From the IMG/VR virus record IMGVR_UViG_2606217118_000001: a DNA stretch of 44,417 nt. One strand, 5' to 3'. Origin of the DNA: a virus. Lineage: Duplodnaviria > Heunggongvirae > Uroviricota > Caudoviricetes. Under the pieces are notes generated by a model that saw only the letters and a list, made by a program, of their open reading frames with translations, searched no databases and had not been told where the DNA came from. The position numbers and the translations under genes are program-made. This document shows positions 20,372-29,686 of the stretch, piece by piece. The first letter of the stretch is position 1. Every line of letters begins with the position of its first letter.

Positions 20372-24052
<3,681 letters not shown>

Positions 24053-24078
<26 letters not shown>

Positions 24079-24598
24079 TCAGCAACCCCGGTATCAGTTC
24101 ATCCAGCGCGGCTGCTTTGTTCATGGCTTTGATGATATCCCGTTTCAGGAAATCAACATGTCGGTTTTCCAGTTCCGGAAAACGCCGCTGCACCGACAGG
24201 GGGATCCCGTCGAGAATACTGGCAATTTCACCTGCGATCCGCGACAGCACGAAAGTACAGAATGCGGTTTCCACCACTTCAGCGGAGTCTCTGGCATTTT
24301 TCAGCTCCTGTGCGTCGGCCTGCGCACGCGTAAGTCGATGGCGTTCGTACTCAATAGTCCCTGGCTGGAGATCTGTCTCGCTGGCCTGCCGCAGTTCTTC
24401 AACTTCCCGGCGCAGCTTTTCGTTCTCAATTTCAGCATCCCTTTCGGCATACCATTTTATGACGGCGGCAGAGTCATAAAGCACCTCATTACCCTTGCCA
24501 CCGCCTCGCAGAACGGGCATTCCCTGTTCCTGCCAGTTCTGAATGGTACGGATACTCGCACCGAAAATGTCAGCCAGCTGCTTTTTGTTGACTTCCAT
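24053..24598 (-). CDS. nu1: Terminase small subunit Nu1
   Basis: 181 aa, MEVNKKQLADIFGASIRTIQNWQEQGMPVLRGGGKGNEVLYDS... Confidence 0.95.
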
Positions 24599-24599
24599 T

Positions 24600-24830
24600 G
24601 TTCATTCCACGGCCAAAAACAGAGAAAGGAAACGACAGAGGCCCAAAAGCTCGTTTTCAGCACCTGTCGTTTCCTTTCTTTTCAGGGGGTATTTTAAATA
24701 AAAACATTAAGTTACGACGAAGAAGAACGGAAACGCCTTAAACCGGAAAATTTTCATAAATAGCGAAAACCCGCGAGGTCGCCGCCCCGTAACCTGTCGG
24801 ATCACCGGAAAGGACCCGTAAAGTGATAAT
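24600..24830 (-). other. cos: cos site (cosB, cosN, cosQ); cosN 12-nt cohesive end at 24775-24786
   Basis: Reverse complement of 24775-24786 is GGGCGGCGACCT; flanking sequence reads as lambda left end (Nu1 side) and right end (...CGTAACCTGTCGGATCACCGGAAAGG). Confidence 0.9.
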
Positions 24831-24986
24831 GATTATCATCTACATATCACAACGTGCGTGGAGGCCATCAAACCACGTCAAATAATCAATTATGACGCAG
24901 GTATCGTATTAATTGATCTGCATCAACTTAACGTAAAAACAACTTCAGACAATACAAATCAGCGACACTGAATACGGGGCAACCTC

Positions 24987-25220
24987 ATGTCAACGAAGAA
25001 CAGAACCCGCAGAACAACAACCCGCAACATCCGCTTTCCTAACCAAATGATTGAACAAATTAACATCGCTCTTGAGCAAAAAGGGTCCGGGAATTTCTCA
25101 GCCTGGGTCATTGAAGCCTGCCGCCGGAGACTGTGCTCAGAAAAAAGAGTTTCTTCTGAAGCAAACAAAGAAAAGAGTGACATTACTGAATTGCTCAGAA
25201 AACAGGTCAGACCAGATTGA
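24987..25220 (+). CDS. Small conserved prophage protein (YlcI/DUF3950-like)
   Basis: 77 aa, MSTKNRTRRTTTRNIRFPNQMIEQINIALEQKGSGNFSAWVIEACRRRL...; opposite strand to late operon. Confidence 0.6.
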   Translation: MSTKNRTRRTTTRNIRFPNQMIEQINIALEQKGSGNFSAWVIEACRRRLCSEKRVSSEANKEKSDITELLRKQVRPD

Positions 25221-25277
25221 AGCAATTTAGATAATCGTGCAGACTACGCCCCCTCATATCACATGGAAGGTTTATCT

Positions 25278-25688
25278 ATGGATCAGGTAGTCATTTTTAA
25301 ACAAATATTTGATAAAGTTCGAAACGATTTAAACTATCAATGGTTTTATTCTGAGCTAAAACGTCACAATGTCTCACATTACATTTACTATTTAGCCACA
25401 GAGAATGTTCATATTGTATTAAAAAATGATAATACAGTGTTATTAAAGGGCCTAAAAAACATTGTGTCTGTCAAATTTTCAAAGGATAGGCATCTTATAG
25501 AAACGACCTCTAATAAGCTGAAATCCAGAGAGATCACATTTCAGGAATACAGAAGAAACCTTGCTAAAGCAGGAGTTTTTCGGTGGGTTACAAATATCCA
25601 CGAACAAAAAAGATATTACTATACCTTTGATAATTCATTACTCTTTACTGAAAACATACAGAGCACATCACAAATGTTTCCACACTAA
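25278..25688 (+). CDS. Conserved prophage protein of unknown function (YbcV-like)
   Basis: 136 aa from ATG at 25278 preceded by GGAAGG; [38 protein letters not shown]... Confidence 0.6.
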
Positions 25689-25988
25689 ACCATAACGTCC
25701 GGTTTCTTCCACCATCGCACCGGAAAAGCGACTATGAGGGTAACCCTGCGTCTGTCAGCACAGTAAAATCCGGTGTGCATCGTTTTTGATTATTCCCGCA
25801 CACTCACGCAGAAGGAATTCCCCGTCGGGCTACGGTCATGGTTAATGCGGGAATACGGCGACGATACAGCGCATGATGTGTCAGGCTTGAATACCTTTAT
25901 CCGTTAAAAGGGATATCAGTTAAGTTATCCCGTGCAGGGTATAAGCCATTATCAAGCCCCCCCGTAGATAGGCTTTGTAATGACATCT

Positions 25989-26513
25989 TCAATTAATCAG
26001 CAGTTCAGGCTGTGTCACCTGCAAGATGTATTCATGCTCGACAGCCAGGACACGCTTCTCTTTCTTCCGTTCGTTCATTAACCGACTGCCGATCGTACCT
26101 TTCAGCTTTGAGCGTGTTTCTTTGATGGCGTAGCGGTGCTGCATTTCTTCGCCAATTGCCATGCGGCGGCTCAGTTGCTCTGCCATCCAGTTGAATGCTG
26201 CGATATAGCTCTCCTTGATTGCCGCAGCAGCTTTCCCGGTGAACCCCATCACAACCATGATCCAGCCATCTTTCGTCAGGCTGTACATCGGGCGAACCTT
26301 GCCCTGCTCATCGATATAATCAGCCGACGCAAAATTGCGTTGGCTAAACTCACGCGAGCAATCAGCCTTAACCTGCTCGATTTTCCTGAGAACATCACCG
26401 TGTCGCTTGCCGAAGTACTTGGCAATTTTTCTGGATGTGGTAACGACCTCTCCGTTTTTGGCTTGCACCATTTCTCGGAAGTCGAAGGCTGGAATAACTG
26501 AATGATTATTCAT
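25989..26513 (-). CDS. rha: Phage regulatory protein, Rha family
   Basis: Start at MNNHSVIPAFDFREMVQAKNGEVVTTSRKIAKYFGKRHGDVLRKIEQ (Rha-type motif); RBS AAGG upstream; longer ORF extension rejected. Confidence 0.7.
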   Translation of the reverse strand: MNNHSVIPAFDFREMVQAKNGEVVTTSRKIAKYFGKRHGDVLRKIEQVKADCSREFSQRNFASADYIDEQGKVRPMYSLTKDGWIMVVMGFTGKAAAAIKESYIAAFNWMAEQLSRRMAIGEEMQHRYAIKETRSKLKGTIGSRLMNERKKEKRVLAVEHEYILQVTQPELLIN

Positions 26514-26855
26514 AGCGTCTTTACCTTTTAGAAAGTGAGCCTGTCTCACAGAAAAGCCGCCCGAGAGAGGTCGCCACCTATAACGGCATTTCTCAGGCTC
26601 GCTTACTGAAAGGCTCTCGTTAATATGCGCGTGAGATGCGCTGTGAAATTCAGATATAAAAAGCCCCGCGAATGCGAGGCTAAATCCTGGTATTTGTAAT
26701 GAACTGGCTCTTATCTCAACGCAGCCCCTTACTGCGCGCCAGATGCTCAATATCAAGCATCAGCAATGAGATGTTTAATCTGGATTTACTCCAGAAGTGA
26801 TCACCACCCTGTCTACAGAGCCAGATGTGAAGGATGATGAGTAAAATTATCGCTA

Positions 26856-27323
26856 TCATCGAAGGCATTGCGTCCTAATGTATTCCTGAAGCGTTCTCAG
26901 TGCTGTTTGGTCGCGGATAATTCCGTCCCGGATATCGAGAACGTTTCGTCCAGCAACTGGAGAGAGTTCGACGGTGGCATCATTGCCCATGCCGGAGGCG
27001 CTGGAGGTTTCGGCTGAGGATGGCACAGGGCATTTTCCTTTGACGAGCACCCTGCCACCATTATCAAGCTTCCGCAGAAGAGCATCATTTTCAGCTTTCG
27101 CATCAGCTAACTCCTTCGTGTATTTTGCATCGAGCGCAGCAACATCACGCTGACGCATCTGCATGTCAGTAATTGCCGCGTTCGCCAGCTTCAGTTCTCT
27201 GACATTTTTGTCGCGCTGGGCTTTGTAGGTAATGGCGTTATCACGGTAATGATTAACAGCCCATGACAGGCAGACGATGATGCAGATAACCAGAGCGGAG
27301 ATAATCGCGGTTACTCTGCTCAT
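26856..27323 (-). CDS. Rz: Inner-membrane spanin Rz (i-spanin)
   Basis: Start [38 protein letters not shown] with GGGGGA SD; ATGA overlap with R stop; C-terminal half diverges from lambda Rz. Confidence 0.9.
26897..27103 (-). CDS. Rz1: Outer-membrane lipoprotein spanin Rz1 (o-spanin), embedded in Rz in +1 frame
   Basis: 68 aa with lipobox LIMVAGCSS and Pro-rich [16 protein letters not shown]. Confidence 0.8.
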
Positions 27324-27817
27324 TGTTTCCCCCACAAACAGACTTCACGCTCAATCTCACGGCGAGTCATCAGTCCTTTCCATTGATTACCGCCAGCGTA
27401 TGTCCAGCGCCGTAGCTGATCACATGCGCCTTTGATATCACCCTGGTTTATTTTGCGAAGAAGCGTCGATGTTCTGAAATTGCCAGCACCCACGTTGTAG
27501 ACGAACGAGTAAAGAGCGCCGCGCGTTGTTTCCGGTATATCGACTTTGATGTACGGGTTAATTTGTCTGGCGACAGTGGCAAGGTCTTTATTCAGGAGGG
27601 CTTTGCACTCTGCTTCGGTATACGTTTTACCGGGAATGATGTCTTTTCCTGTATGCCCGTAACATACAGTCCATACACCAACTATGTCTTTGTAAGGATT
27701 ATGTCTCACACCTTCCAGACCATCGTTACCACTTGGGCCAGTGATTAACACAGATGCTATAGCAATAGCCCCGCCACCAATAGCAGCAGCAACAGCTTTT
27801 CGTAATGATGGAGGCAT
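27320..27817 (-). CDS. R: SAR endolysin (T4-lysozyme-like, phage 21 R / DLP12 RrrD-like)
   Basis: 165 aa; N-terminal Gly/Ala-rich SAR segment [20 protein letters not shown]; E...D...T catalytic spacing; ATGA overlap with S stop. Confidence 0.9.
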
Positions 27818-28032
27818 TATCCACCTCTCGCAGCCTTGCGCTTATCTTCTTTAATCTTGAAATAAAGGTTTGTCAGGTACGTCAGCAGGCCAAATACCAG
27901 GCTACCCAGCACTCCAATTGCCGCCCACTGTGAGGGCGTGACTTTATCGAGCAGCTGTAAAAACCAGTACCCGGCACTACCTGCTGAGGTGCCATAGGCG
28001 ACACCCGTTGTTAACTTATCCATGGATTTCAT
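27817..28032 (-). CDS. S: Class II holin (pinholin, S21/EssD-like) with dual-start motif
   Basis: 71 aa [71 protein letters not shown]; two TMDs; Met1 and Met4. Confidence 0.9.
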
Positions 28033-28190: not shown

Positions 28191-28603
28191 AAGTAACCAC
28201 TCTTAACAGCATAACCAATTTTTTACGTACGTAAACCACTAAATGATATTTGCGAGAATGCTACCGAGTATTGAAAACACCACTACAAATACATAAGCAA
28301 ATCTCAACAAATAACCAACAAATAATTTCCAGCGTTATTTTTAGCTGGTTTAAATTGAATCTTCAAATTATAGAGCACTTATAAATAACAGCCATTAATA
28401 TAAATTGGCTAATAGATTTATTTTTATTCAGCCAAGAGCCATGAATAGGATTCGATAGAAAAAGTTCAGATAAAAATAGAGATCTACTTCACAAATCAAA
28501 TGAGAAACCAAAACTTACATCTTGAAATAATCACATTGATTAGATGAATATTTATCGCGCAGTGACATCATTTTTTAATAATAGTTCAAAAAAAGGGCTC
28601 ACG

Positions 28604-29686
28604 ATGAAAAAATTAACAGTGGCAATTTCTGCTGTAGCTGCATCAGTACTGATGGCGATGTCTGCTCAGGCAGCTGAAATTTATAATAAAGACAGTAACA
28701 AGCTGGATCTGTACGGGAAAGTTAATGCTAAGCACTACTTCTCCTCTAATGATGCAGATGATGGTGATACTACTTATGCCCGTCTTGGCTTCAAAGGTGA
28801 AACCCAAATCAACGATCAACTGACTGGTTTCGGTCAGTGGGAATATGAATTCAAAGGCAACCGCGCTGAATCTCAAGGTTCCTCCAAAGATAAAACCCGT
28901 CTTGCCTTCGCTGGCCTGAAATTCGGTGACTACGGCTCCATCGATTATGGCCGTAACTACGGTGTAGCATACGATATTGGTGCATGGACCGACGTTCTGC
29001 CAGAATTCGGTGGCGATACCTGGACCCAAACAGATGTATTCATGACTGGTCGCACCACAGGTGTTGCAACTTATCGTAACAATGACTTCTTTGGTCTGGT
29101 TGATGGTCTGAACTTTGCTGCTCAGTATCAGGGTAAAAATGACCGCACTGACGTAACTGAAGCTAATGGTGATGGTTTCGGTTTCTCCACTACTTATGAG
29201 TATGAAGGATTCGGTGTAGGTGCAACCTATGCTAAATCTGACCGCACTAATAATCAGGTTATCTACGGTAACAACAGCCTGAATGCATCTGGTCAAAATG
29301 CTGAAGTATGGGCAGCTGGTCTGAAATATGATGCGAACAACATCTATCTGGCTACCACCTATTCTGAAACCCAGAACATGACTGTTTTTGGTAATAACCA
29401 TATTGCCAACAAAGCACAAAACTTCGAAGTAGTTGCACAATATCAGTTCGACTTCGGTCTGCGTCCGTCCGTTGCTTACCTGCAATCTAAAGGAAAAGAC
29501 TTGGGTGCGTGGGGTGATCAGGACCTGGTTGAATATATTGATGTAGGTGCAACCTATTACTTCAACAAAAATATGTCCACTTTTGTTGATTACAAAATCA
29601 ACCTGATTGATAAGAGCGATTTCACGAAAGCATCTGGCGTTGCTACCGATGATATCGTTGCTGTAGGTATGGTTTACCAGTTCTAA
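28604..29686 (+). CDS. Outer membrane porin, OmpC/OmpF/PhoE family (phage-borne Lc/NmpC-like)
   Basis: Signal peptide [39 protein letters not shown]..., C-terminal ...VGMVYQF; AAGGG SD; longer upstream ORF extension rejected. Confidence 0.9.

Follow-up and report, generated by a model that had tools for sequence, protein, structure and literature searches.

The interval 24987–26513 of the window (the whole stretch of DNA that was analysed, 44,417 nucleotides, IMG/VR virus record IMGVR_UViG_2606217118_000001) is very probably the junction of two independent and known mosaic modules, namely a ynfO–ydfO pair linked to cos and Nu1 and a late rha cassette linked to the lysis genes. The arrangement as such is already known, being a standard PGAP-annotated stretch of lambda-like E. 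coli prophage, and little changes in the finding as submitted in the initial annotation; only the leader RNA in front of rha and the modular cargo family behind this leader go beyond current curation. The 2.3 kb from 24600 to 26900 were found as 100% identical DNA in several complete E. coli genomes, where RefSeq uses the names “YlcI/YnfO family protein,” “DUF1398 domain-containing protein,” “Rha family transcriptional regulator,” and, for a 153-nt gene, “hypothetical protein.” The isolated phage PhiR70_1 was 99.2% identical to the same 2.3-kb region. Parts of the region, i.e., the ynfO–ydfO/cos portion, were present in 5003 of 5426 complete E. coli genomes (>90%) with a median of two copies.

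Organization of the interval between cos and Rz

The late strand of the prophage is the minus strand of the window and carries S, R, Rz/Rz1, rha, Nu1, and terminase A. On the lysis side, the holin (S, 27817–28032, minus strand; Pfam), the lysozyme (R, 27320–27817, minus strand; Pfam), the Rz spanin (26856–27335, minus strand; PF03245), and Rz1 nested in Rz (26897–27103, minus strand; PF06085) were assigned. On the packaging side, cosN (24776–24787, minus strand) was read directly from the sequence as AGGTCGCCGCCC, corresponding to GGGCGGCGACCT on the late strand, which is the same as in lambda. The small terminase Nu1 (24053–24598, minus strand; PF07471, E = 3.9e-101) and terminase A (22153–24078, minus strand; Pfam) lie beyond cos.

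Between these landmarks, the three ORFs of the initial annotation were recovered with identical positions and strands, and the same CDSs were called by RefSeq in identical DNA: a ynfO allele encoding a 77-aa protein of the DUF3950 (YlcI/YnfO) family (24987–25220, plus strand; PF13132 and NF041551), a ydfO allele encoding a 136-aa DUF1398 protein (25278–25688, plus strand; Pfam match), and rha, encoding a 174-aa Rha-family protein (25989–26513, minus strand; PF09669 and TIGR02681). The families named in the initial annotation were borne out by domain searches, in which DUF3950 (E = 2.7e-21), DUF1398 (E = 1.7e-46), and Phage_pRha (E = 3.8e-28) all scored above the curated Pfam cut-offs. Apart from the database labels of DUF1398 that are dealt with below, nothing assigned these ORFs to structural or lysis functions. 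Against the lambda, DLP12, and phi80 alleles, dN/dS values of 0.15–0.23 were obtained and, judging by these ratios, the three genes are real and under purifying selection.

The convergent genes ydfO and rha are separated by a spacer (25689–25985, boundaries from blastn), of which the first ~185 bp are homologous to the lambda p78–bor intergenic region (blastn). In the alignment with HK630, in whose record the bor promoter is annotated, the −10 element of this promoter was degenerate in the spacer (TACAAT to TACGGC). As the initial annotation had stated, bor itself is absent: tblastn found no Bor homologue in the whole window.

Linkage of ynfO and ydfO to the cos module

All three genes had initially been regarded as cargo replacing bor. 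This holds for rha, but not for the two small genes, which lambda and DLP12 carry alongside bor. Similarly, the naming of the small genes as YlcI-like and YbcV-like was correct at the level of families but not of alleles, which are those of Qin: window positions 24070–25707 shared 99.1% nucleotide identity with nohA–ynfO–ydfO of the K-12 prophage Qin (blastn), whereas ybcV was only ~80% identical at the nucleotide level. Lambda and DLP12 were ~98% identical to window positions 24000–25149 (98.4% for the lambda stretch from Nu1 over cos to the right end) and ~80% identical to 25204–25873 (blastn). The 64-aa ORF of lambda is identical to DLP12 YlcI in the alignment, and the lambda DUF1398 gene is lambdap78, with ybcV as its DLP12 counterpart. 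Qin, DLP12, and the lambda right end thus share with the window the same two families in the same order and orientation beside cos and Nu1. They differ in that lambda and DLP12 have ybcW (lambdap79) inserted between ylcI and the DUF1398 gene (ylcI–ybcW–ybcV–borD in DLP12), an insert that the window lacks, while in Qin ynfO–ydfO are followed by gnsB–ynfN–cspI.

A profile search with DUF1398, which covered 65 genome loci, recovered DUF3950 and DUF1398 in the window order at every lambda-type Nu1 locus, and both were absent from the P22-type and Stx-type packaging modules examined. Since the pair is present with every lambda-type Nu1 examined and absent from the other packaging modules examined, the variable slot is the one between DUF1398 and Rz. 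This slot is empty in phage Kati and in E. albertii, and it is occupied by bor in lambda and DLP12, by csp/gns genes (gnsB–ynfN–cspI) in Qin, and by rha in the window prophage. Counting DUF3950 and DUF1398 as slot cargo would be wrong, as they are part of the lambda cos module, that of lambda itself included. With regard to the bor/lom “moron” genes of lambda, the inter-module slot is the same, and ynfO, ydfO, and bor are all antisense to the late operon; unlike bor, rha lies on the late strand, behind a terminator, and without a visible promoter of its own.

The strict physical linkage to lambda-type cos/Nu1 and the absence from the other packaging modules examined would also fit a functional tie of the pair to cos or packaging, e.g., as a DNA-binding modulator of terminase access or as a means against cos-hijacking satellites, and among the proteins listed for capsid-forming PICI satellites of Enterobacter is one of the YlcI/YnfO family (PMC13612085). 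Such a tie appears quite unlikely, however, as hitch-hiking by itself would lead one to expect linkage within ~200 bp of cos. In addition, the DUF1398 gene is dispensable for lambda growth, since lambdap78 was non-essential (PMC10695390) and lambda that had taken up ybcV::kan from DLP12 was viable (PMC3945230). The pair is also located on the non-late strand, where transcription of ynfO and then ydfO would lead away from cos, antisense to the late operon, and in K-12 the homologues are affected by host stress and by PdhR. In the favoured reading, ynfO and ydfO are probably accessory genes that face the host and that phage growth can do without.

Predicted properties of YnfO and YdfO

YnfO is a very basic protein (pI 10.5), whose N-terminal 50 aa (MSTKNRTRRTTTRNIRFPNQMIEQINIALEQKGSGNFSAWVIEACRRRL) were invariant and whose tail was variable in the alignment; its HMM scores were 75.6 bits for PF13132 (cut-off 25) and 36.6 bits for NF041551 (cut-off 30). 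By eye, the motif RNIRFP...GSGNFS resembles Arc/Mnt (FNLRWPREV...NGRSVNSE), and in the AF2 model two helices occupy the places expected for helices A and B of a ribbon-helix-helix fold. This fold was subjected to four formal tests, all of which stayed below significance. No ribbon-helix-helix family of Pfam matched YnfO, hhalign against a ribbon-helix-helix profile yielded a probability of 0.6%, and the best Foldseek matches were a TCP domain and ParD2 at E ≥ 3, with ParD antitoxins and MatP among the weak top fold matches. We consider a ribbon-helix-helix fold likely, and YnfO would then be a small basic DNA-binding protein, probably of this fold, that regulates the ynfO–ydfO pair.

The ydfO product is near-identical to PDB 2HH8 (E = 5e-85), for which an NMR structure has been solved, and both the HMM match and the 2HH8 fold place it in DUF1398. 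The protein is soluble, lacks a recognisable catalytic site, and adopts an orphan fold in which a helix-helix-strand-strand-strand unit occurs in tandem. The existing labels of DUF1398 as head protein (“head protein,” PHROG) or envelope protein (lambda record) were rejected, as the protein is soluble, hydrophilic, represented by the 2HH8 structure, and dispensable, and nothing in this analysis backs either label. Envelope or lipoprotein features were absent from the products of ynfO, ydfO, and rha, which are hydrophilic. Also rejected was the wide taxonomic spread of DUF1398, an artefact created by lambda DNA that is present in unrelated assemblies; the real range is the Enterobacteriaceae.

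The literature contains no function for YnfO or YdfO, and the published phenotypes are restricted to stress-linked expression of ydfO/ybcV in K-12. Expression of ydfO is strongly induced by ionic-liquid stress (PMC4077768), and over-expression of YdfO is cited in the same source as raising oxidative-stress resistance. In a pdhR mutant, the mRNA levels of ybcV and ybcW were lower (PMC7660256). Because no sigma-70 promoter was seen upstream of ynfO in a simple scan, whose total number of sites was below the shuffle expectation, expression of ynfO–ydfO in the lysogen is assumed from the K-12 data only. Searches with the PADLOC-DB 2.0 defence models returned a single match at noise level for YdfO (Csx23, E = 0.013) and nothing for the other three proteins. 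Nothing points to a new conversion or exclusion function of the kind initially suggested for the small genes, and ynfO–ydfO may have a modest host-facing role.

A type II toxin-antitoxin-like or abortive-infection pair that protects the lysogen or stabilises the prophage, with YnfO as ribbon-helix-helix antitoxin and autorepressor and YdfO as toxin, was also considered. The layout has some resemblance to such systems, with a small basic protein carrying an Arc/Mnt-like N-terminal motif whose gene is followed after 57 nt by a slightly larger one in the same orientation, and with the ParD antitoxins and MatP among the weak fold matches mentioned above. We nevertheless deem this reading highly improbable. 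Type II toxin-antitoxin systems are adjacent, co-transcribed pairs conserved in relatives, which the ynfO–ydfO families are not: the opposite-strand ybcW splits the pair in lambda and DLP12, and DUF1398 relatives of ≤50% identity all occur alone, with no DUF3950 within 5 kb. Moreover, no PADLOC match rose above noise, the YdfO fold has no toxin-like neighbour, over-expression of YdfO is reported as protective rather than toxic (cited in PMC4077768), and ybcV knockouts are viable (PMC3945230).

The rha cassette and the Rha protein

The rha cassette is a discrete block that is present or missing as one unit. To either side of it, phage Kati and the window are collinear, but Kati lacks exactly positions 25986–26655 (blastn), and this presence/absence block of 670 bp (minus strand) comprises the rha CDS and a leader of 142 nt. 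At least 80% of the cassette was found in 333 of 5426 E. coli genomes (~6%).

The Rha protein has its Rha domain at the N-terminus and a conserved tail at the C-terminus, and it scored 98.3 bits with PF09669 (cut-off 29.9) and 113.8 bits with TIGR02681 (cut-off 45.95). It shares 74% amino acid identity with Rha of the phi80-type prophage in XL10-Gold, both belonging to the 172–174 aa class, and the Rha protein of phage phiv205-1 is identical to that of the window; by sequence, the window rha is the orthologue of phi80 rha. A truncation of Rha, which might be read from the PHROG profile being matched over positions 1–170 of 268, was rejected, as phi80 Rha and other alleles have 172–183 aa; no coding remnant was noted downstream of rha.

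The Rha family was founded on phi80 rha and P22 rha (orf201) (Mozola & Friedman 1985; Henthorn & Friedman 1995; as cited in PMC4936722). According to PMC4936722, both belong to the late operon, and their products prevent the phage from growing when the host has no integration host factor. The placement of rha on the late strand in the bor slot of lambda was confirmed, with rha on the same strand as S, R, Rz, and Nu1 and as the lone occupant of the bor place. It is not an unusual cargo after Rz, though, as the initial annotation had implied: this is the classical position in phi80 and P22, and rha directly follows Rz in phiv205-1 and in Stx2 phages as well. Lying on the late strand 342 bp after Rz, the window gene has the late-operon position of the Rha family. 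It has in common with phi80 and P22 rha the place after Rz, the late strand, PF09669, and a terminator plus leader upstream, and it differs from them in the packaging module downstream, which is lambda cos/Nu1 with ynfO–ydfO.

Rha may act as a late DNA-binding or antirepressor-type regulator, the term “antirepressor” being taken from database annotation. Over-expression of rha is harmful to the phage in hosts without integration host factor. A single IHF-like site with one mismatch was found near rha, which is chance level.

The gap between Rz and rha

The 340-bp gap between Rz and rha described in the initial annotation was confirmed in length (342 bp, from 26856 to 26513), but it is not empty and holds an ORF, a terminator, and a leader. 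The ORF (orf50; 26716–26868, minus strand; WP_001139682; phrog_11822, E = 2e-37) encodes a putative membrane protein of 50 aa with a hydrophobic N-terminus, overlaps the Rz stop, and is conserved alongside Rz, being found in Kati, E. albertii, and phiv205-1. An intrinsic terminator (AGCCTCGC-ATTC-GCGGGGCT, followed by a T tract; 26652–26681, minus strand; terminator scan) is located between orf50 and the leader. Its hairpin runs from 26681 to 26662 on the minus strand with the T tract after it, and the cassette starts directly behind. The stem sequence varies among relatives with pairing still possible (alignment read by eye), and a terminator is likewise annotated in the phi80 record where the same match falls. 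The late-strand order is Rz, orf50, intrinsic terminator, structured leader, and rha.

Predicted structure and distribution of the rha leader

The 5′ leader of rha (~130 nt; 26514–26643, minus strand), a homologue of the P22 RNA P22F, was characterized with RNAalifold and a covariance model. The RNAalifold consensus, which was built on ten diverse leader copies, comprises a 4-bp hairpin (HP1; 26627–26641, minus strand) and a three-tier hairpin of 20 bp (HP2; 26537–26600, minus strand) that ends ~8 nt before the Shine-Dalgarno sequence AAAAGG of rha (26524–26529, minus strand). In the MAFFT alignment of 10 sequences, 98.7% of the positions were paired and double compensatory changes were observed in 7 of 24 pairs, which none of 500 shuffles reached; controls in which the structure was slid gave 36–48% paired positions and 0–1 double changes. 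In the model-based alignment of 22 sequences, 99.2% were paired and 11 of 24 pairs had compensatory double changes (0/500 shuffles; slid controls 32–48% paired, 0–2 double changes), counts that lean towards the structure of the model because this alignment was fitted to it.

Searching the window with the covariance model resulted in one strong match (26507–26643, minus strand; 151 bits, E = 1e-29), the sole other match being a weak opposite-strand echo of the same site, and there was no match in lambda, DLP12, Qin, and Kati. Rfam 15 contained no family matching the leader and returned hairpin noise only. The leader was present in 160 phage records (Escherichia, Salmonella, Shigella, Klebsiella, Enterobacter, Hafnia, Pantoea, and Providencia), and IMG/VR contigs with the leader numbered at least 120. 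In an Stx2 phage, the covariance model also detected a divergent second copy in front of an “Ant” gene that sits between R and Rz.

P22F is an experimentally detected 89-nt RNA of P22 that has no known function and ends 6 nt before the rha start codon (PMC13397905). Its printed sequence (PMC13397905) is the P22 row of the HP2 alignment, and the P22 locus scored 97.8 bits with the covariance model. HP2 is homologous between P22F and the window leader. P22F was reported as an RNA of a single phage; the present analysis adds its conservation across the family, the covariation, and the association with interchangeable cargo genes. We consider the predicted fold of the leader well supported, and in P22 a corresponding RNA has been observed.

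Proposed role of the leader

The ~150 nt from the terminator to the rha ATG were 90–100% identical in front of different genes, and the leader was 95% identical to that of phi80 although dS of the adjacent CDS was 1.29. Near-identity before unrelated cargo genes is the pattern of lambdoid mosaic recombination joints, and the leader could instead be a boundary at the DNA level that is kept by recurrent, cargo-swapping homologous recombination, or a protein-binding DNA site, with no function as RNA. Red-mediated exchange has been demonstrated in this region (PMC3945230), and HP1 includes a direct repeat of GCGCAT spaced by about one helical turn. On balance, an exclusively DNA-level role is nonetheless rather unlikely: the divergent copies (P22, Klebsiella, Providencia, and Pantoea) keep the helices by double substitutions, pairing and compensatory changes (99% and 11/24 pairs) are far from the 32–48% paired in the slid controls, and a discrete RNA of exactly this segment was detected in P22 infection (PMC13397905). 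In part, the conservation of the leader could still reflect a recombination joint between modules.

For the leader as RNA, no promoter-like site was found within it in the sigma-70 scan. With no promoter in the leader and a terminator upstream, the cargo is expected only from Q-antiterminated late transcripts, and rha would be made from these transcripts only. The leader may limit or time rha translation. In the consensus structure the Shine-Dalgarno sequence is unpaired, and simple occlusion thus does not follow from the structure; processing of the transcript is a likely route for the leader to act, since its homologue in P22 builds up as an 89-nt species. With evenly balanced confidence, we propose that the leader is an uncurated cis-regulatory RNA family serving as a portable control unit for interchangeable late genes, whose processed form (P22F in P22) would gate products that harm the phage when made in excess. 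The leader RNA is a candidate Rfam family, and through it the way in which lambdoid phages keep late genes of the rha class in check becomes accessible to experiment.

Interchangeable cargo behind the leader

The same leader precedes phi80 rha, a Rha allele at 37% protein identity, and genes for KilA-N, Ant, and GIY-YIG proteins, including HK620 hkbK (KilA-N) and one GIY-YIG protein of HK106. The cargo amounted to 62 distinct sequences in 21 groups at 70% identity, with the other cargo proteins behind the leader being ~160–183 aa long. Rha, KilA-N, and Ant-type cargo have a C-terminal segment of ~50 aa in common, with the consensus ...K(D/E)xASMSGRLLNRWGxxKKPxLxARxxxLEQxGQ..IPGL in most cargo and KLKGTIGSRLMNERKKEKRVLAVEHEYILQVTQPELLIN in the window Rha. 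The shared segment points to a common effector tail that carries exchangeable DNA-binding domains at the N-terminus; the C-terminal tail would contact a common partner, and the N-terminal domain (Rha, KilA-N, or Ant) would be swapped. Residues 118–170 of the KilA-N cargo matched positions 117–170 of the Rha PHROG profile (E = 2e-8).

Leader RNA and cargo of the Rha cassette

The Rha-family gene (rha, 25989-26513, minus strand) is preceded by a structured leader RNA at 26514-26643 on the same strand, which is conserved and covarying and consists of a hairpin (HP1) and a three-tier hairpin (HP2). In many lambdoid phages of enterobacteria, this leader is found ahead of Rha, KilA-N, Ant, and GIY-YIG genes, and its homologue in P22 is the small RNA P22F; no family was found for it in Rfam. 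In the Stx2 phage L010, a gene annotated as “anti-repressor Ant” is inserted between R and Rz, and upstream of it lies a second, divergent leader copy (L010:1501-1640, plus strand; 78 bits). Two leader copies are likewise carried by comparison locus L081.

Proteins encoded behind the leader (window Rha and those of loci L078, L079, L008, and L010) have unrelated N-terminal domains, i.e., Rha, KilA-N, or Ant, and a common C-terminal tail of ~50 aa, which in the window Rha spans aa ~120-174 (25989-26150, minus strand) and contains no Pfam domain. Such a tail suggests that these proteins interact with one common partner.

Within HP1, GCGCAT occurs as a direct repeat with a spacing of ~10-11 nt (26627-26641, minus strand; GCGCATCTCAC GCGCAT), which could serve as a protein-binding site in addition to forming the hairpin.

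The apical hairpin of the leader (26568-26579, minus strand) has the sequence AGGTGGCGACCTC. It has the 9-mer GGCGACCTC in common with the cohesive-end site cosN (24776-24787) plus flank (GGGCGGCGACCT followed by C). Since a similar leader loop (GCTGGCGAGCC) occurs in P22, a pac phage, this match is probably a coincidence.

Neighboring genes and remnants

A homologue of the lambda p78-bor intergenic region persists at 25689-25873 (plus strand), though without bor itself. Phage HK630 has an annotated bor promoter that aligns to this region, and since the -10 element is changed here from TACAAT to TACGGC, the promoter homologue looks like a dead remnant; TACGGC is also found in Kati, a phage collinear with the window but without the rha cassette.

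Beside Rz, an ORF of 50 aa whose N-terminus is hydrophobic (26716-26868, minus strand; phrog_11822) shares 13 nt with the end of Rz, stop codon included, and is kept together with Rz in several examined phages and prophages. It may encode a small membrane protein belonging to the lysis cassette.

Outside the Rz-cos interval, the OmpC/NmpC-type porin gene at 28544-29686 is a classic moron. It lies on the plus strand, opposite to the late genes, with the Q antiterminator region on one side and the holin gene on the other; DLP12 (nmpC) and PhiR70_1 (as “OmpD”) have a porin gene at the equivalent place.

Lambda sequences in unrelated assemblies

The lambda arrangement ylcI-ybcW-ybcV-bor-Rz was recovered on dozens of short contigs, many of ~3.5 kb (L017-L036 and L052-L054, matches in genome contigs), assigned to unrelated taxa, e.g., Flavobacterium, Pedobacter, Cohnella, Kitasatospora, and Bradyrhizobium. 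These look like lambda DNA that entered the assemblies as a control or spike-in, and such contigs make the host range of DUF1398 and DUF3950 appear wider than it is.
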